Positions 4,109-18,595 of a stretch of 64,000 nt of DNA are shown here, one piece after another. The stretch comes from Centroscyllium fabricii (lineage: Eukaryota). A program made the translations under genes and the position numbers. Within the stretch, counting starts at the first letter, position 1; the number at the start of each line of letters is the position of its first letter. The stretch spans positions 310,001 through 374,000 of the forward strand of contig JBNRSN020000354.1 in NCBI GenBank assembly GCA_051313645.2, given 5' to 3'. The notes beneath the pieces were generated by a model. That model had not been told where the DNA came from, ran no database searches, and worked only from the letters and a program-made list of their open reading frames with translations.

Positions 4109-4191
4109 ATTTAATCAACTTTGCAAAACCTCTCACTCAACTCGAACTTTTGGACAAAACTCGGAGCTGAGGATCCAGGGAAGCCACCAGC

Positions 4192-7100
4192 ATGGAGAAC
4201 CTCCTTAGACCGACTCGTCTCGATTTGGACCCAAACACCTCAGCAGCTGATAAAGTCTGGAAACACTGGTATCACGCTTTTGAAAATTTTCTTGTATATT
4301 GTGAAGCTGATGATGACATGAAGCTCAAGTTACTAATCAACTATGTCACCCCAAGGGTATATGAATGTGTGGATCATTGGACTAATTTTGATGAGGCAAT
4401 TCGGACACTTCAGAGACTATATACTAAGACACCTAATGAGGTCTATGCTAGACATCTACTAGCTACAGCCCGACAAGGGCCAGAGGTATCAATTGATAAA
4501 TTCCTTCATGAGCTTCGCAGGCTTAGCATGAATTGTAACTTTCAGGCGGCTTCAGCTGAGCTGTACCGTGAAGAAATGATTCGTGATGCCTTCATCTGCG
4601 GGCTTGCCTCCCCATTTATTCGCCAGCGTCTACTCGAAAGTAAGACACTGGAACTACAAAAAGCTTATGACTTGGCTTGTTCTCTGGATTTGGCAAAAAG
4701 AAATGCAGACCTTTATGAAGTACCTAGACCTCGAACTGCTGCTTTAACCACAACCAGACAATTTAAGCGGCCACAGGTGAACTCTATTAGGGAGGACTGT
4801 TATCCTGATGATCAATCTGAGGACTTCACTGATGAAGAAGATAATGACCCCACTCTGGCAGCCTCTTGGCGATCTAAGAAATGCTTCTTTTGTGGTGATG
4901 AGTTTCATCCTAGGAAATTCTGCCCTGCTCGCAATGCGATTTGCAGTCATTGTGACAAAAAGGGTCATTTTGCGAAGGTTTGCTTATCACGAGCCTCTAC
5001 GAGGGCTTATCAAGCTCAGTCCTATCGAACTGCCCCAATTAGGGCCTATCAAAATATTCCGGCTAAATCTTATCATGCTTCCTCTCGGGGTTTTTCCCGA
5101 AGAAGCACACCGAGAGTTTCTGCCACTCTTTGTGCAACAACATCAATTACAGCTGCTTGTCCTCCAAATCTATTCTATGCTGCTGTGAAGGCATCAATTG
5201 CTGGACATACTTTAGATGCCTTAATTGACTCTGGCAGCTCTGATAGTTTTATTAGGGAACAAGTTGTTACAAAGTTAAAGCTACATGTTTTCCCATCCAA
5301 CCAGGCAATTGCGATGGCTCAGTCGTCGCTCAACACCAGAACCTCCGGCTTTTGTATTGTTGAAATATCACTTAATGGCCACAGGTATCCCTCTACCCGG
5401 CTTTCGGTGCTCAAGGACCTGTGTAGTGACCTTCTCTTAGGGCTGGACTTCCAAAAGCCGCATAAGACGCTCACTATTGAGTTCGGCGGATCCAAACCCG
5501 GACTCACTGTTTCTAATATCCTGCCTCAATTACCGTTCTGTGCGTTGTCAGCGGCTTCGCTGGATGAACCCTCACTATTTACCAGTATTCCTCCTCGATG
5601 CAAGCCAATTATAACAAAATCACGACGTTTCACTCAGGAAGACCAGTCCTTTATTGCGACTGAAATTTCTCGGCTTTTGGCAGAGGATATCATCGAGCCT
5701 TGTTCATCGCCATGGCGGGCCCAAGTTGTTATTGTTAAAAATCCTCTGCAGCCTCACAAGAAACGGCTGTGCATTGACTATTCACAGACCATCAATCAAT
5801 ATACGGACTTGGACGCCTACCCATTGCCGCGCATAGATGATATGGTTAATAAATTGGCTGAGTACACGGTGTTCTCAACATATGATCTGAAAAGCGCCTA
5901 TCATCAAGTACCTTTGAAAGTCTCAGACAAGCAGTATACGGCCTTTGAGGCCAATGGACGGCTGTACCAGTTCCGTCGCCTCCCGTTTGGGGTCACTAAT
6001 GGAGTGGCTGTCTTCCAGCGGGCAATGGATGACTTCGTCAAGCAGGAAAACTTAAAGGATACTTTTCCTTATCTAGATAATATTACTGTTGCAGGTCGTG
6101 ATCAACAGGAACACGACGCCAATCTCCAACGATTTCAGGATGCACTCCAGCACCGTAATTTAACATTGAATGCGTCTAAATCTATTGAGTCACAACCAAC
6201 CATCAACATCCTTGGCTATTGTGTGGGCAATGGCATAATTAAACCGGACCCTGAAAGGCTTCGTCCGCTCCAAGAGCTCCCGCCACCTAAGAATCCAGCC
6301 TCCTTGCGTCGGGCCCTCGGCCTCTTTGCGTATTATGCTAAATGGATTCCAAACTTCTCGGACAGAATCCAACCCCTACTGAAGGCCGGAACATTTCCAT
6401 TAGACACAGCGGCTGTTACAGCCTTTAATCTTCTAAAACAACTGTTGGAGAAAGCGGCCCTTCACTCTATTGATGAGAATCTGCCCTTCGTCGTTGAATG
6501 TGATGCCTCAGAAGTGGCGATCTCGGCTACTCTGAATCAGGAAGGTCGTCCGGTGGCATTTTTATCCAGGACCTTTCAAGGTGCCGAAATACATTATCCT
6601 CCAGTGGAGAAAGAAGCTACAGCCATTATCGAGGCAGTACGGAAATGGAACCATTTCCTAGCTCGGCAACACTTTACGTTAATAACAGACCAGCGATCGG
6701 TCGCTTTTATGCTTGATAATCGGAAACGAACCAAAATTAAAAATAATAAGATCCAGCTTTGGCGGATGGAGTTGGCCTCTTTCGGTTACACCATCCACTA
6801 CCGACCTGGCAAGGACAATGTGGCCCCGGATACCCTCACACGAGCATTCTGCTCCGCCGTGTCACCCTCTACTCTCGTGGACGTCCATGATGGATTGTGT
6901 CATCCTGGCGTTACCCGCATGTTACACTTCGTGCGATCACGGAATCTCCCTTTTTCTACCGGGGATGTCAAGAAGATGTGCTCGGACTGCAGAGTCTGTG
7001 CAGAATTAAAGCCTCAGTTTTTCCGCCCCTCGGGTGGTACGCTCATACATGCGACCCAGCCGATGCAACGGCTTAGCATTGATTTTAAGGGCCCGTTGCC

Positions 7101-8175
7101 CTCTTCAACTCGAAACACTTATTTACTGACCATGGTCGACGAATATTCCCGTTTTCCGTTTGCCTTTCCCTGCCCCAATATGCTGTCATCCACCGTTATC
7201 AGCTGCCTTGAACAGGTATTTTCTTTCTGTGGCATGCCGTCTTACGTTCACTCGGATCGGGGTCCTTCCTTCATGTCAGGAGAACTCAAGGCTTATCTCT
7301 CGGATCGGGGCGTTGCTACCAGTAAAACGACGCCTTATCATCCTGTCGGGAATGGGCAAATCGAACGGTATAATGGCATCATTTGGAATTCTGTACGTCT
7401 AGCTTTGAAATCTCGGGGCTTGCCCATCCAGCAATGGGAAGCAGTACTCCCAGACGCATTGCATTCTACACGGTCCCTTCTTTCGACCGCCACAAATATG
7501 ACTCCCCATGAACGATTCTTTCAATTCCAGCGTCGCTCATCCTCCGGGATCTCTCTTCCATCGTGGCTGACTACACCAGGACCGGTGTTACTCCGGAGAC
7601 ATGTCCGGGCATCCAAGAATGACCCCCTTGTAGATGAGGTGGAACTGACTGATATCAACCCGACCTATGCATATATCCGATATCCTGACGGTCGGGAATC
7701 CACTGTGTCGTTACGGGATCTGGCTCCCTGCCCGCCGAAACTTACTGGGACACCTGGGGATGGTGATTTGCCAGGCGCATCTCTGTGCTCGCCAGGTACC
7801 CCTCACCAGGATCTGGATCTGACGCCGGCTGGCACTTCACTCCAGGATACAAACCGGAGGCAGACCGACTATGAGCCCATTGGGGCTCGCACACGCAGCC
7901 ACGATCCACCACGTTCTACACGCCCAGAAACGAATCTACCACAGACCTACTCAACACCCGTTCGGGCTCAAACGCAAAGCCATGCTCTCCCAGACCCTTC
8001 ACAGGGCGGGCCAGACCACACGGATTCTGATCAATGGCCCACGGCACGTAAACGGGCTAGAGACCCTCTATCACCATGTGAACCCAAACGGGTGCGACTC
8101 TCCCTCATTCGACGGATACGTAATGAAGGGAGGATTCCGGCCTCCTACTCTTTTGGGAGGGAGGCGGCCTCCTAA
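4192..8175 (+). CDS. Gag-Pol polyprotein (Gag with two zinc knuckles, protease, RT, RNase H, integrase), 1327 aa
   Basis: CFFCGDEFH...C and CSHCDKKGHFAKVC knuckles, LIDSGS protease, RT (DLKSAYHQ, LPFG, YLDN), RNase H (CDAS, EKE, TDQ) and integrase (HHCC, IDF, HSDRG, IER), in Gypsy order. Confidence 0.96.
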   Translation: MENLLRPTRLDLDPNTSAADKVWKHWYHAFENFLVYCEADDDMKLKLLINYVTPRVYECVDHWTNFDEAIRTLQRLYTKTPNEVYARHLLATARQGPEVSIDKFLHELRRLSMNCNFQAASAELYREEMIRDAFICGLASPFIRQRLLESKTLELQKAYDLACSLDLAKRNADLYEVPRPRTAALTTTRQFKRPQVNSIREDCYPDDQSEDFTDEEDNDPTLAASWRSKKCFFCGDEFHPRKFCPARNAICSHCDKKGHFAKVCLSRASTRAYQAQSYRTAPIRAYQNIPAKSYHASSRGFSRRSTPRVSATLCATTSITAACPPNLFYAAVKASIAGHTLDALIDSGSSDSFIREQVVTKLKLHVFPSNQAIAMAQSSLNTRTSGFCIVEISLNGHRYPSTRLSVLKDLCSDLLLGLDFQKPHKTLTIEFGGSKPGLTVSNILPQLPFCALSAASLDEPSLFTSIPPRCKPIITKSRRFTQEDQSFIATEISRLLAEDIIEPCSSPWRAQVVIVKNPLQPHKKRLCIDYSQTINQYTDLDAYPLPRIDDMVNKLAEYTVFSTYDLKSAYHQVPLKVSDKQYTAFEANGRLYQFRRLPFGVTNGVAVFQRAMDDFVKQENLKDTFPYLDNITVAGRDQQEHDANLQRFQDALQHRNLTLNASKSIESQPTINILGYCVGNGIIKPDPERLRPLQELPPPKNPASLRRALGLFAYYAKWIPNFSDRIQPLLKAGTFPLDTAAVTAFNLLKQLLEKAALHSIDENLPFVVECDASEVAISATLNQEGRPVAFLSRTFQGAEIHYPPVEKEATAIIEAVRKWNHFLARQHFTLITDQRSVAFMLDNRKRTKIKNNKIQLWRMELASFGYTIHYRPGKDNVAPDTLTRAFCSAVSPSTLVDVHDGLCHPGVTRMLHFVRSRNLPFSTGDVKKMCSDCRVCAELKPQFFRPSGGTLIHATQPMQRLSIDFKGPLPSSTRNTYLLTMVDEYSRFPFAFPCPNMLSSTVISCLEQVFSFCGMPSYVHSDRGPSFMSGELKAYLSDRGVATSKTTPYHPVGNGQIERYNGIIWNSVRLALKSRGLPIQQWEAVLPDALHSTRSLLSTATNMTPHERFFQFQRRSSSGISLPSWLTTPGPVLLRRHVRASKNDPLVDEVELTDINPTYAYIRYPDGRESTVSLRDLAPCPPKLTGTPGDGDLPGASLCSPGTPHQDLDLTPAGTSLQDTNRRQTDYEPIGARTRSHDPPRSTRPETNLPQTYSTPVRAQTQSHALPDPSQGGPDHTDSDQWPTARKRARDPLSPCEPKRVRLSLIRRIRNEGRIPASYSFGREAAS

Positions 8176-13624: not shown

Positions 13625-13859
13625 TTTGCGATGCAGGCATTGAAATTAATAATTGTTAATGATGCGGCTAGGTAACAATGGCGGGCTTGTTTATTGTCTA
13701 TACGTATATGTGTGTGTGTGTGTGAGACAATGAGGAGCTGTCAGTCGGACTGTGCCTGGAGCTCTGGTATTGGGAGGTGTGTGAGGGGCTCGGTCTGTGG
13801 AAAGTTGCTGAGCGGTCTGTTCCTCAGCAGCCTCTCGCCGCATTGTGACTCACAGCGTC
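13625..13859 (+). promoter_or_regulatory. Probable promoter/5' UTR of the SPAK/OSR1-family gene
   Basis: Non-repetitive sequence directly upstream of the ATG, with a (TG)n tract and an AP-1-like TGACTCA at ~13846. The TSS cannot be determined from sequence. Confidence 0.4.
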
Positions 13860-13932
13860 ATGGCGGAGGAGCTGCTCGCCGGGTCCCAGTGGCCAAATTC
13901 AAGAGATGCCTACGAGCTGCAGGAGATCATCG
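13860..13932 (+). CDS. STK39: First coding exon of a STE20-family SPAK/OSR1 (GCK-VI) kinase
   Basis: Strong Kozak context gtcATGG. Translates MAEELLAGSQWPNSRDAYELQEII-G, matching STK39 WPICRDAYELQEVIG and OXSR1 WSINRDDYELQEVIG. Phase-1 donor G|GTCAGT falls in the Gly codon where exon 1 of these genes ends. The paralogue call (STK39 vs OXSR1-like) is tentative. Confidence 0.85.
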
Positions 13933-14650
13933 GTCAGTCTCTTCTTCACTTTTTTTTGTGTCAGGAACGGCGCGTCTAAACAAATGTAACCGTCGCCACA
14001 ACAAAGGAGGGCGGGGAGGAGGAGGGGGGAGAAGCCACCCTCCCCTCAATTCTTTTCTGTTGTTGGTCTTTTAGTTCGATCTCAGTCTGTTGGGCGGCAT
14101 TATTCGTTTCTGAGCGAGCTCAATCCTTGGGTGCAGGGAGACTGCGTCTTTTTGATGAAACTGGCGCTGCGTTTGAGGAGAAAGAGGGAGGGTGGGAAGG
14201 ACCACAGCTTTTCGTTCTGATTTATCAGCTTCTTCGGGGGTAGGTCCCTGCTGCAAGTGGCTGTTCTGATGATAAATGCGTGTTTTTGGGGCCAGGATGT
14301 CGTAGCTTCGGATGTTTTGCGTTGCTGTTATTCGCCCCTCTCCTCTCCTCTCCTCTCCTCTCTGACTGGGTTGATCCGGGTTCAGTGGCAATGAATGAAA
14401 GGAGTGAGTTGAACATGTTGGAAGTGACTGTGCTTCCAGACTGGCTGTCAGCCTCTCTCTTGACATATTTGCAGAACTGCGACATTGGCTCTTGATGTCA
14501 AATGGGACCCCCCCTCCCTATAACAAGCTATGATGTGGAGGTGCCGGTGTTGGACTGGGGTGGACAAATGTAAGAAGTCACACAACACCAGGTTATAGTC
14601 CAACAGTTTTATTAGACATGATGTGGAGGTGCCGGTGTTGGACTGGGGTG

Positions 14651-16986
14651 TGTTACCGAATTAACGACCTCGGAGACGAGTTATAACGAGGTGAAACAAT
14701 CGGCTATTATTAGCTAAAAGGTGGGCATGCACCAGCTAGTCGACCGTCCTCAGAATGGCTGGGGGAAGGGAGACGGCCGCTTATGTACCTGGTCCTGGGA
14801 AGGAGGAGTCACAGGCGGCGCCAGCATGGGCATGCCCAGGTAGCAATACACAAAGAACTATGTACAGTACAGTTACACACAGATATATATACAACATGGT
14901 TTACCACATTCACCCACCCCTTGTTTAAAAACAAAAGTCCGGCGGGGCGAATGCGACACAGTTCTTATAAGTCAAGCCTGTCGGGCGGCCTGGTCTGTCT
15001 GGTCGATCGGCGCACCGCTGGTGGTGGAGTCGACGGGCGCACCGTTGGCAGTGGAGTCGGTAACAGCGAGGTCGGCGTGGGCGTTCGGTCCATCGTTGGT
15101 GCCCTTGCGGTAACGACCAGAGGCGCGCTCTCCCATTCGTCATCCGACTCTGGGGTGCGTGCACTAGGGGGCCATGCTGTGCTGCCTGCAGGTGCTGGGT
15201 GGGCGTACCGTGGCGCTGGAGCCTCGTGGTGAGCGACGTACCGTGGTGCTGGTGGCCCGGAGGTGGTGGCAGGCAGGCGAGGGGGTGCGGGCTGATGGGC
15301 AGAGCTGGTCTCGGGGGCACCCGCGGGTGCCAGGTCCTTGATGGACACCGTATCCTCCCTCCCGTCGGGGTACGCCACGTAGGCGTACTGGGGGTTGGCG
15401 TGCAGGAGGTGGACCCGTTCGACCAGGGGGTCCGACTTATGGCCCCTCACATGCTTCCGGAGCAGGACTGGTCCTGGGGGCGATAGCCATGACGGCAGCG
15501 AGGTCCCGGAAGCCGACTTCCTAGGGAAGGCAAAAAGTCGCTCGTGAGGGGTGGCGTTAGTGGCCGTACAAAGAAGTGACCGGATGGAGTGGAGCGCTTC
15601 GGGGAGGACGTCCTGCCAGCGGGAGACTGGGAGGCCTTTAGACCGTAGGGCTAACAGGATGGCCTTCCAGACGGTGGCGTTCTCCCTCTCTACCTGTCCG
15701 TTCCCCCGGGGGTTGTAGTTGGTAGTCCTGCTAGTAGCGATGCCTTTGGCTAGCAGGAACTGACGCAGCTCGTCGCTCATAAAGGAGGCCCCCCGGTCGC
15801 TGTGGATGTAGCTCGCCGTGCTCCCGCTGTCAAAAAGGCACTCTGTACTCCGCCCGTTCACCTCCACTGTCATCATCGATCTGCTGAGTGGCTGATTCTT
15901 GTTCTGATCCAGTGTGATGGAGGCCAGTATCGGGTCGGTCGAGTCGGTTGAGAGGTATGGGGCCTGGTCCCAAGATGGCTGCCGCCATGTGGTGTACTGT
16001 GATGGAGGTGGCTGAGACCAAGATGGCGTCTGCTGCCACGCGGCGGGTTCTGGTGAAGATGGCTGTGTCCAAGATGGCTGCCCCCATGGCCCACACGCGA
16101 CGCTGCCTGGTTTGGAGTGCGGTATTGCCGCTGCTCTGCAGACTTTTGCGTAATGTCCCTTCTTACCGCATTTCGAGCAGGCCGCGTCTTTCGCCGGGCA
16201 ATTTCGCCTGGGATGTTGGGCCTGACCGCAGAAGTAGCATTTAGGCCCTCTCAAGTGCGTAGCCACAGTCATCTCTTCCGCCGGTCGCAGCGTGGCCGGC
16301 TGTGCCCAAGATGTCGCTGATGGGGCCGCGTGGTTGCCCGAGTAAGACGACAAGTTAAGAGACGCCAAGTCCAGAGCGTTTCCCAGGTCAGCTGTCGCCT
16401 GCAGGTCCATACCGTTTTGCTCCAAGAGTCTTTGGCGGATATAGTCGGACCTGAGGCCAGTCACGTAAGCGTCCCTGATGAGACTGTCCGCGTGTACCTG
16501 GGCTGACTGTGCCTTACAGTTGCAGGCCCGGCAGAGGACTCTCAGCGCTCGTAGGAACTCCACGCTCAATTCCCCGGGTTGCTGCTTTCTGGTGGCCAGG
16601 AGGTGTCTGGCGTGGACGAGGTTCGGTGCCCGGTTATATTCGGCTTTTAGAATCCGGATCGCATCTAGGTAAGACGGTGCATCCAAGATCATCGAGTAGA
16701 CTTGGGGGCCCACCCGGGCGTTGAGAAGGCGCCGTTTGTCCTCCTCTGTCCTGACGACCACCGCGTTTGCTTTGAGGAACGCGTCAAAACAGTCGAACCA
16801 GTGCGTGAAGGTATTGGAGGCGCCTGGCGTTTGGGGATCCAGTTCGAACGTCGCTGGTTTGAGCATGGACTCCATAGTTAAATTTAGCTAATAAAATTGT
16901 TACCAAATTAACGACCTCGGAGACGAGTTATAACGAGGTGAAACAATAGGCTTTTATTAGCTAAAAGGTGGGCATGCACCAGCTAG
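14651..16986 (-). mobile_element. Internally deleted Gypsy LTR retrotransposon (element 2)
   Basis: Complete 258-bp 3' LTR 14651-14908 preceded on the minus strand by PPT GGGGTGGGTGAA. The 5' LTR remnant 16898-16986 is nearly identical to 14651-14739. Confidence 0.9.
14965..16875 (-). CDS. Gag fused in frame to protease start and integrase C-terminal half, 636 aa (RT/RNase H deleted)
   Basis: Gag is homologous to element 1 (two knuckles). LFDSGST is joined directly to ASYIHSDRGASF...VERE...LLCTATNATPHER. Confidence 0.85.
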   Translation of the reverse strand: MESMLKPATFELDPQTPGASNTFTHWFDCFDAFLKANAVVVRTEEDKRRLLNARVGPQVYSMILDAPSYLDAIRILKAEYNRAPNLVHARHLLATRKQQPGELSVEFLRALRVLCRACNCKAQSAQVHADSLIRDAYVTGLRSDYIRQRLLEQNGMDLQATADLGNALDLASLNLSSYSGNHAAPSATSWAQPATLRPAEEMTVATHLRGPKCYFCGQAQHPRRNCPAKDAACSKCGKKGHYAKVCRAAAIPHSKPGSVACGPWGQPSWTQPSSPEPAAWQQTPSWSQPPPSQYTTWRQPSWDQAPYLSTDSTDPILASITLDQNKNQPLSRSMMTVEVNGRSTECLFDSGSTASYIHSDRGASFMSDELRQFLLAKGIATSRTTNYNPRGNGQVERENATVWKAILLALRSKGLPVSRWQDVLPEALHSIRSLLCTATNATPHERLFAFPRKSASGTSLPSWLSPPGPVLLRKHVRGHKSDPLVERVHLLHANPQYAYVAYPDGREDTVSIKDLAPAGAPETSSAHQPAPPRLPATTSGPPAPRYVAHHEAPAPRYAHPAPAGSTAWPPSARTPESDDEWESAPLVVTARAPTMDRTPTPTSLLPTPLPTVRPSTPPPAVRRSTRQTRPPDRLDL

Positions 16987-16999
16987 ACTGGTCTCTCTT

Positions 17000-17037
17000 T
17001 CACCTGACGAAGGGGCAGAAGCTCCGAAAGCTTATGA
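17000..17037 (+). ncRNA. Minimal hammerhead ribozyme motif
   Basis: TCAC-CTGACGA-A-GGGGC-agaa-GCTCC-GAA-AGCT-T-ATGA, with one stem I mismatch. Confidence 0.65.
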
Positions 17038-17100
17038 TTTAAAATAAAACTGTTGGACTATAATCTGGTGTTGTGTGACTTCTTGCAGTTTTATTAGAAA

Positions 17101-17137
17101 TCACAAGCTTTCGGAGCGTTGCTCCTTCGTCAGGTGA
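17101..17137 (-). ncRNA. Minimal hammerhead ribozyme motif
   Basis: Minus strand TCAC-CTGACGA-A-GGAGC-aac-GCTCC-GAA-AGCT-T-GTGA, all stems intact. Confidence 0.78.
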
Positions 17138-17282
17138 AGTGAAGAGATGCATATAGGCACAGCATATCTAGTCAGGGAACACTGCCAGATGATTACAGGT
17201 AATCTTTCCAACTGCCCTTACCTGTGATCATCTAGCATTGTTCTCTGACTATATCTGCTGTGCCTATATGCATCTCTTCACT

Positions 17283-17319
17283 TCACCTGATGAAGGAGCA
17301 GCGCCCTGAAAGCTTGTGA
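17283..17319 (+). ncRNA. Minimal hammerhead ribozyme motif (weakened stem II)
   Basis: TCAC-CTGATGA-A-GGAGC-agc-GCCCT-GAA-AGCT-T-GTGA. Confidence 0.6.
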
Positions 17320-17449
17320 TTTCAAATAAAACTGTTGGACTCTAACCTGGTGTTGTGTGACTTATTACATTTATAACAAGCTAGATGTAGGAAGGATGTT
17401 CCCGATGGCCAGGCAGTCCAGAAGCAGGGGTCACAGTCTAAGGATAAGG

Positions 17450-17707
17450 CTGACTGATATGTTAGAACACCTTTGATTGCTTTGATGTCTCTCTGCTGAG
17501 GTGTGATGTTGAACAGTTGGAGAGACTACATTGTTCTCTCCCTCAATATATATATATGCTGTGTTTAAATGAATCTCTTTACATGCACCTGAGGAAGGAG
17601 CTGCGCTCCGAAAGCTTGTGATTTCAAATAAAACTGTTGGACTATAACCTGGTGTTGTGTGACTTCTTACAATTGTCCACCCTAGTCCAATACCGGCACC
17701 TCCACAT
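17450..17707 (+). mobile_element. Short Penelope-like insertion
   Basis: 11-bp TSD TAAGGATAAGG (17439-17449, 17708-17718). Carries the terminal repeat from the hammerhead to ...CCGGCACCTCCACAT. Confidence 0.75.
17587..17621 (+). ncRNA. Minimal hammerhead ribozyme motif
   Basis: CAC-CTGAGGA-A-GGAGC-tgc-GCTCC-GAA-AGCT-T-GTG. Confidence 0.68.
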
Positions 17708-18595
17708 TAAGGATAAGGGGTAAGCCATTTAGGACAGAGATGAGGAGGGATTTGTTCACGCAGAGAGTGGTGAACCTGTGAAATTCTCTACCACAGAGGG
17801 CGGCTGAGGCCAATTCATTAAATATATTAAAGAAGGAGTTAGATATATTTCTTACAGCTACAGGGATCAAGGGATATGGGGAGAAGGCAGGGACAGGGTA
17901 CTGAGTTTGGATGACCAGCCATGATCGCATTGAATGGCGGAGCAGGCTCGAGGGGCCGAATGGCCTACTCCTGCTCCTATCTTCTATGTTTCTATGTTTA
18001 CACTTGAGGGTTGGTGTGCGTGTGTGCGAAGTGTCAGCTGATGCCTGGCACCACATCAAGCATAATGAAAATGTTTATACAAATCACAGACTATTTTATT
18101 ATTGTTATTGGGAGAGGGGACAGGTGGTCCTAAGGCTAACTCGCTGCATATTTGCAGAAGGCAAAAAGACTTTGAGAGAGTATATAGTGAGATTGTTTCT
18201 GTTGGTGAATCAGTGAAGAGGGCACAGACCTGCCAAAAAATGAAGAGGAAAGTTAGACAATTTCTTTTCAGAGAGAGAGTTGTCAGAACATGGAATTCTT
18301 TACCACGAGTGGCTACTGTGGCAGAGATGTTTGAAAGGGGAGAATATAAAAGGATGTCAGGAAAGAACAAGGAAATGCGATTAGAGTGGACAGTTTCAAT
18401 TGAGGAACCAGCAGCGGCACTTCTGGACTGATTGACCTCCTTCTGTGCTATACGTTCACTGATTCCATGACTCAAGCATGATACTGGATTGAATCTGTAA
18501 ACATGGAAGAACATGTAATCTAACCTCCCCCTCTTGCTCCCTCCCAAAACAATATTCACTTAATTCAGTACCGACACACTTTCTGTGTTCAGGTA

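Follow-up and report, generated by a model that had tools for sequence, protein, structure and literature searches.

Nested Penelope-like element insertions probably account for a cluster of minimal hammerhead motifs in intron 1 of an STK39-like gene of Centroscyllium fabricii

Results

The present study analyzes a stretch of 64,000 nt of the Centroscyllium fabricii genome (the window; assembly GCA_051313645.2, contig JBNRSN020000354.1, 310,001–374,000), and all coordinates given here are positions within it. The first coding exon of an STK39/SPAK-like kinase lies at 13860–13932 on the + strand (MAEELL...YELQEII, phase 1); the frame opens with an ATG at 13860 and runs through 24 codons and one base to a GT donor at 13933. 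Intron 1 measures 98,784 nt and extends past the window to an exon 2 in matching phase, with further + strand kinase exons downstream on the contig. The best match of exon 2 was to SPAK (E 1.5e-16), followed by OSR1 (E 1.7e-15), while exon 1 gave two weak matches, both SPAK (E 0.19 and 0.37), the former aligning to the residues that immediately precede exon 2 in the same SPAK chain. Because exons 1 and 2 match consecutive SPAK residues, the original prediction, which placed the hammerhead motifs in the sense direction in intron 1 of a kinase gene, is correct, and the cluster belongs to the first intron of an STK39/SPAK-like gene on the + strand, about 3 kb from the start of that intron. A 1009-nt contig from an RNA-like run of a relative matched 13832–13933 only, which is the pattern expected of spliced mRNA. 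Three RNA-like contig sets from relatives and one DNA-like set covered exon 1 and the repeats, contigs being unable to show cut ends.

Exon 1 encodes approximately nine residues before the conserved kinase start. Mammalian SPAK has a long Pro/Ala-rich leader, and a leader of this type seems to be absent here unless the start lies further upstream. Elsewhere in the window, a 27-bp G-rich satellite extends from 30949 to 64000 and continues to approximately 64,800, making up one third of intron 1, and a stop-free LTR-retrotransposon polyprotein frame of 1334 codons occupies 4171–8172 (+), with Pfam matches to protease, RT, RNase H and integrase.

Four minimal hammerhead motifs (min-HHRs), three sense and one antisense, were read in the sequence at most 1 nt from where they had been predicted: copy 1 at 17000–17037 (+; stem II GGGGC-AGAA-GCUCC; predicted cut 17033), copy 2 at 17137–17101 (-; intact; predicted cut 17105 on the - strand), copy 3 at 17283–17319 (+; weakened stem II; predicted cut 17315) and copy 4 at 17586–17621 (+; predicted cut 17617). 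All four have the same order of stem I 5′ strand, CUGANGA, an extra A, stem II, GAAA, GCU, U and stem I 3′ strand, so that the core CUGANGA...GAAA and a UH cleavage site are present in each, and stem II consists of 5 bp with a loop of 3–4 nt. Since GCU-U directly follows GAAA in each copy, stem III is a loop-less AGCU palindrome with the predicted cut after CUU, as had been described, and in all four copies the palindrome lacks the loop with which a monomer could close it, again in agreement with the earlier claim. There were in addition two defects absent from that description. In copy 1, A replaces G at position 1.1, giving a C-A mismatch (1.1/2.1) beside the cut site, and in copy 3 stem II is closed by a G-U pair and contains an A-C mismatch, and the motif fails the structural descriptor defined below. 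The pair G10.1-C11.1 is G-C in copies 1, 2 and 4 and G-U in copy 3, and helix I beside the cut site has 4 bp in copies 2 and 3, 3 bp in copy 4 and the mismatch just mentioned in copy 1. An AATAAA signal lies 3′ of each sense motif. A fifth min-HHR, intact and of the copy-1 subfamily, was seen on the - strand at 2848–2950, upstream of the kinase gene.

A structural descriptor consisting of the core and a stem II of at least 4 bp, with stem I and the palindrome unconstrained, matched 55 times in 1.4 Mb of genome and 0 times in each of 5 shuffles, from which it follows that the motif is not a product of chance. The extra A between 9 and 10.1 was present in all 55 matches, 15.2/16.2 was GC or CG in 46, stem I had 3–4 bp in 45, and G10.1-C11.1 was found in 36; these are the features that excerpts of PMC4209133 list for the min-HHRs of Penelope-like elements (PLEs). 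Rfam searches at the gathering threshold returned 0 matches within the 64-kb window.

The motif belongs to an abundant dispersed repeat. Among 1,745 candidates for a 141-nt query around copy 4, 40 scored full-length copies had 95–100% identity and were distributed over many contigs. A strict 35-nt pattern matched the genome 58,460 times, and a pattern fitting all four copies matched 144,514 times (72,221 on the + and 72,293 on the - strand, about one per 50 kb), with 0 matches for a reversed-pattern control; the locus is thus not special by its motif. Copies of the repeat have a fixed 3′ end and a variable 5′ end. Directly downstream of the ends of GIY-YIG-type ORFs there were 7 motif matches in 6 of 30 loci, and in loci chosen by the N-terminal part of the ORF the 3′ end of the repeat lay just upstream and in the same direction in 9 of 25, running into the ORF ATG in 8. 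One locus (L048) holds the greater part of an ORF, in which RT motifs, a CX4CxxC linker, endonuclease motifs and two cysteines within the core can be recognized, and the repeat follows this ORF. A 660-aa piece of the ORF matched Pfam RVT_1 (36.5 bits; cut-off 29.6), while Pfam gave 0 matches for the PLE N-terminal, thumb or endonuclease pieces, the GIY-YIG assignment resting on motifs, and a PDB sequence search with the same 660-aa piece gave no match. Head-to-head pairs numbered 25 in 43 loci, and in every one of the 25 exactly one arm carried a tail of about 33 nt; loci L002–L030 had been chosen for a tailed end and the remaining pairs came from a hammerhead-only selection, and the one-tail rule held also in 11/11 pairs from loci not chosen for the tail. 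An inverted pseudo-LTR (pLTR) with a one-sided tail is a hallmark of PLEs (PMC3846280; PMC8557442, as excerpted). The positions flanking the ORF, the RVT_1 match and the one-sided tails together identify the repeat, at the level of sequence, as the pLTR of an endonuclease-bearing (EN+) PLE. A CX2-5CxxC linker before the endonuclease and a CCHH motif define Neptune/Nematis elements in excerpts of PMC8557442, and judged by its linker motif the present PLE appears to be of the Neptune/Nematis type.

Sequence comparison resolves the cluster into three separate insertions, A (copies 2 and 3), B (copy 1) and C (copy 4), nested and each with its own target-site duplication (TSD). Insertion A spans 14531–17371 between the halves of a 12-nt TSD (14519–14530 and 17372–17383) and comprises a tailed - strand arm with copy 2 and a tail-less + strand arm with copy 3. 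The tailed arm is now in two parts, its 3′ half (pLTR end and tail) at 14531–14616 (-) and its 5′ half, with the intact antisense copy 2, at 17099–17202 (-), and in uninterrupted copies (L054, L056 and L058) the two halves are directly adjacent. The tail-less inverted arm at 17218–17371 (+) can form a 117-bp, 91% hairpin with 17086–17202. Insertion B (14617–17085) sits within the - strand arm of A, flanked by a 13-nt TSD (14604–14616 and 17086–17098), and comprises a tailed-arm stub recognized by sequence comparison (14617–14650, -) and a tail-less arm with the mismatched copy 1 (16987–17085, +). It is interrupted by an internally deleted LTR element (14651–16986, -), the right LTR of which is cut short at 16986 and which is probably of Ty3/Gypsy type; its LTR pieces are identical at 86/89 positions, and its zf-CCHC and rve matches fall below the Pfam cut-off. 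Insertion C (17450–17707, +; 11-nt TSD at 17439–17449 and 17708–17718) is a single 5′-truncated tailed pLTR with copy 4, and splits the 3′-end fragment of a LINE (+; 17384–17449, resuming at 17719), presumably CR1-like, the flanks of which are directly adjacent in 33 of 36 pairings among other copies. Insertions A and B both obey the one-tailed-arm rule. The copies represent different subfamilies, differing in loop II and upstream sequence, and have 94.8–98.9% identity with their nearest fetched relatives. PMC11167929 (excerpted text) proposes A/T-rich DNA as the target of insertion, the pLTR of the element itself included.

Two other origins were considered. Local duplication of one hammerhead is ruled out by the different subfamilies and separate TSDs, and a non-LTR retrozyme, i.e. 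a head-to-tail tandem with a hammerhead per unit, is rejected in that Tandem Repeats Finder found no array, the spacers are unrelated and each insertion has its own TSD. Within the Ty3/Gypsy-type relic, 16883–16896 and 16952–16965 form a perfect 14-nt inverted repeat to the adjacent LTR at the primer-binding position, an arrangement that recalls Tf1-type self-priming.

Same-strand pairs separated by 250–280 nt occurred 125 times in the genome compared with at most 45 expected by chance, and the family therefore clumps. Four of 12 same-strand-pair loci had at least three motifs within 700 nt, one of them having four, and no third same-strand motif was present in any of these 12, which had been chosen for a same-strand pair; there was also no same-strand pair among the 38 motifs in the 1.4-Mb sample. 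By chance alone, about 3 triples of same-strand copies within 620 nt would be expected genome-wide, and allowing for clumping we estimate tens; the locus is thus uncommon, yet of a kind to be expected in this genome. That uncommonness, and a position 3 kb inside the first intron of a signalling kinase gene, could be taken to mean that the cluster was retained by the host as a switch turning STK39 pre-mRNA on and off, in which the antisense copy would serve as the brake, and intronic ribozymes that tune host expression do exist, CPEB3 being an example. We consider such exaptation extremely improbable, given that two of the three sense copies have changes that are damaging relative to the family, that the copies are 95–99% identical to dispersed relatives and therefore young and unremarkable, and that the mechanics of insertion account fully for the layout.

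Orientation inside genes was sampled in 14 other large gene spans (140 of 160 planned 10-kb stretches, 1.4 Mb), which were delimited by same-strand domain matches such that some stretches may fall between tandem paralogues. The motif occurred 35 times, 15 sense and 20 antisense (p = 0.5), at a density of one per 40 kb that is no rarer than the genome mean; sense copies are thus common in genes and there is no strong exclusion. BLAST over the hammerhead gave 20 sense and 28 antisense copies (p = 0.31), solo copies numbered 9 sense and 18 antisense (p = 0.12), and solo occurrences of any part of the pLTR 8 sense and 18 antisense (p = 0.076), with two LINE controls having no such lean (61:62 and 57:46 in one tally, 82:84 and 60:49 in another). 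As the antisense lean of solo copies is absent from the LINE controls, sense copies may be mildly harmful, and the counts leave room for a mild depletion of sense copies in genes, but the trend is not significant and could equally stem from the AATAAA in the repeat. For Xenopus retrozymes a mild intronic depletion has been described, with strand disregarded (10.64898/2026.07.22.740005, preprint, excerpted).

Folding of 16980–17720 predicted that copy 3 is paired over its full length with copy 2 (P about 1.0), with -190.7 kcal/mol for 17084–17336, the copy 2/3 hairpin, vs -81.6 kcal/mol for the copy 1–2 region. In folding snapshots copy 2 pairs with copy 1 first and shifts to copy 3 by approximately 17300–17340. 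When active dimers were forced, their costs relative to the free ensemble were +7.2 kcal/mol for core 1 on site 4, +12.5 for core 4 on the mismatched site 1, +21.8 for core 4 on site 3, +27.4 for core 1 on site 3, +31.1 for core 3 on site 4 and +73.5 for core 3 on site 1, values that serve as a ranking only since ViennaRNA energies omit stabilisation by the hammerhead core, stacking and tertiary contacts. Among the six combinations, only core 1 on site 4 would be near feasible. Its cost is at the favourable end of that of nine natural same-strand pairs, which ranged from +5.1 to +90.1 kcal/mol (3 of 12 loci were dropped for having fewer than two pattern matches). If the first hairpin were to persist, the cost of the two dimers between copies 3 and 4 would be +12.5 and +16.5 kcal/mol. 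According to the original prediction, pairing in cis among the three sense copies could lead to cleavage of the intron, which the analysis does not support: the copies arrived by separate insertions, copy 3 is predicted to be locked by copy 2, the copy 1 site is mismatched, and five of the six combinations cost 12.5–73.5 kcal/mol. Of its further idea that the antisense copy sequesters the sense copies, what survives is that copy 2 can sequester a sense copy, although only one at a time.

Discussion

Taking as established the repeat family and its association with the ORF, the three TSDs, the positions of B within A and of C within the LINE, and the host intron, the patterns detected are best explained by a neutral nest of three separate truncated PLE insertions in intron 1 of an STK39-like gene, in which the hammerheads are likely inactive passengers; we put the probability of this reading at roughly 85%. 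Each insertion would have brought a pLTR in which the min-HHR sits shortly before the start of the ORF. Insertion A would have arrived in the common head-to-head form, with copies 2 and 3, B would then have landed in the A/T-rich stretch of A (copy 1) and been interrupted later by the LTR element, and C would have landed in the neighbouring LINE fragment (copy 4). During transcription copy 2 would pair with copy 1 and then swap to copy 3, forming the long hairpin, and the remaining 4-bp dimer helices would be too weak to cut before splicing, at least without a protein from the element.

The Schistosoma min-HHR had no cleavage as a monomer and low cleavage as a dimer or trimer, and a stem III mimic cut mostly at non-physiological Mg2+ (PMC4209133, excerpts), while the anole motif cleaved only with its protein, the excerpted text reporting no RNA-seq ends at its site (PMC11167929). 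Canonical axolotl hammerheads cleave much better as dimers, but these have a loop 3 (PMC7229834, excerpted). The premise that PLE-associated min-HHRs cleave as dimers is therefore right as to the type of element and weaker than had been claimed as to activity, dimers being weak or else inactive without the element protein. Judged by titles and the opening lines of abstracts, no paper in the collection searched reports a PLE min-HHR cutting a host intron.

An alternative explanation could be accidental, low-level cleavage in cis at 17617, with the intact core of copy 1 acting on the intact site of copy 4 in a small fraction of pre-mRNAs and slightly lowering STK39 output without being selected. 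For this, the copy 2/3 hairpin would loop out about 250 nt and the AGCU palindromes would pair, perhaps only with a PLE protein as chaperone. The arrangement is nested and free of pseudoknots, this combination has a 4-bp stem I and the lowest cost of the six, the snapshots predict that the copy 1 core is freed while copy 3 is being made, and exon 2 is approximately 95 kb further on, which would allow time before splicing; the protein-assisted cutting in the anole and the low trend of solo sense copies in genes also point this way. Nevertheless, the predicted occupancy is about 1e-5, the weak engineered constructs and the anole RNA-seq data argue against it, and the sense trend carries the reservations given above, so that we consider such cleavage unlikely.

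It is somewhat less unlikely, though still improbable, that the transcript is affected by something other than catalysis, i.e. by A-to-I editing of the 117-bp hairpin or binding of the double-stranded RNA, or by premature polyadenylation at AATAAA, and this would be compatible with an origin of the locus as nested PLE debris. Long intronic hairpins undergo editing, the hairpin is the dominant predicted structure here, and the signal follows each sense motif. Fold-back pairs are, however, very common in this genome, as the 25 pairs in 43 loci indicate, and any effect of the hairpin would therefore be generic.

A further reading, to which we give little credence, is that the cluster would be an accidental, timed cis-dimer ribozyme, with copy 2 masking copy 1 and then swapping to copy 3 so that core 1 meets site 4, and with the PLE protein acting as chaperone such that STK39 intron 1 would be cut whenever the retrotransposon is expressed. 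If this were so, selection against such cuts would have left its trace across the genome in the antisense lean of solo copies in introns, and more than 100,000 PLE hammerheads would constitute a latent, transposon-triggered layer of pre-mRNA cleavage.

Read as nested insertions with inactive passengers, the locus has little consequence as found, being one unusually dense pile of a repeat that is present every 50 kb. It does, however, document clearly how PLEs insert into A/T-rich ends of their own kind, and it offers a natural construct for the question whether metazoan min-HHRs ever cut host RNA. Cleavage here, or a real depletion of sense copies in annotated introns, would be direct evidence of action outside the element's own cycle.

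The motifs resemble the PLE min-HHRs of PMC4209133 (excerpts) in having no loop 3, a palindromic 15.2-16.2, an extra nucleotide at 9/10.1, G10.1-C11.1 in most copies and a short helix I, and in occurring mostly as single dispersed copies with opposite-strand pairs 100–700 bp apart. Helix II is 7–8 bp in Schistosoma compared with 5 bp here, and the same source gives 4,000 copies for coelacanth and 9,000 for Xenopus vs 144,514 by one pattern here, the methods being different. As in EN+ PLE insertions described in excerpts of PMC3846280 and PMC8557442, there is an inverted 5′ pLTR, a tail of 30–40 bp at one end and 5′ truncation, but the TSDs are 11–13 nt here rather than 8–10 bp, and here three insertions are stacked within 3.2 kb. 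The Anolis Poseidon element PAc (PMC11167929, excerpts) likewise carries its hammerhead within the pLTR close to where the ORF begins, has a tail delimited by two 3′ end points, and prefers A/T-rich targets including its own pLTR. In PAc, however, the reading frame begins at stem II, with the cut site 26 nt past the start codon, whereas the ATG of the present element (L069–L091) closes the tailed pLTR and lies about 90 nt 3′ of the predicted cut site. Non-LTR retrozymes (PMC7229834; 10.64898/2026.07.22.740005, both as excerpted) share with this locus several type-I hammerheads a few hundred bases apart and a relationship to PLEs, and in vertebrates they require dimers; unlike them, the locus has no head-to-tail array, its spacers, a hairpin and part of a LINE, are unrelated sequence, and a separate TSD accompanies every copy.

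There was also a second min-HHR family, with an ACGU palindrome and an AGUU/AACU stem I, the parts of which covary. It has 25,322 exact pattern matches genome-wide, and one member lies antisense in the same kinase gene (G000:C883, approximately 426,700, - strand; L036). Finally, at approximately 468,600–500,600 of the same contig (L040–L043), downstream of the last located kinase exon, a spacerless head-to-head pLTR palindrome lies in a 33-bp satellite, together with which it has apparently been amplified, and this 32-kb region contains 8 sense and 10 antisense intact hammerheads.
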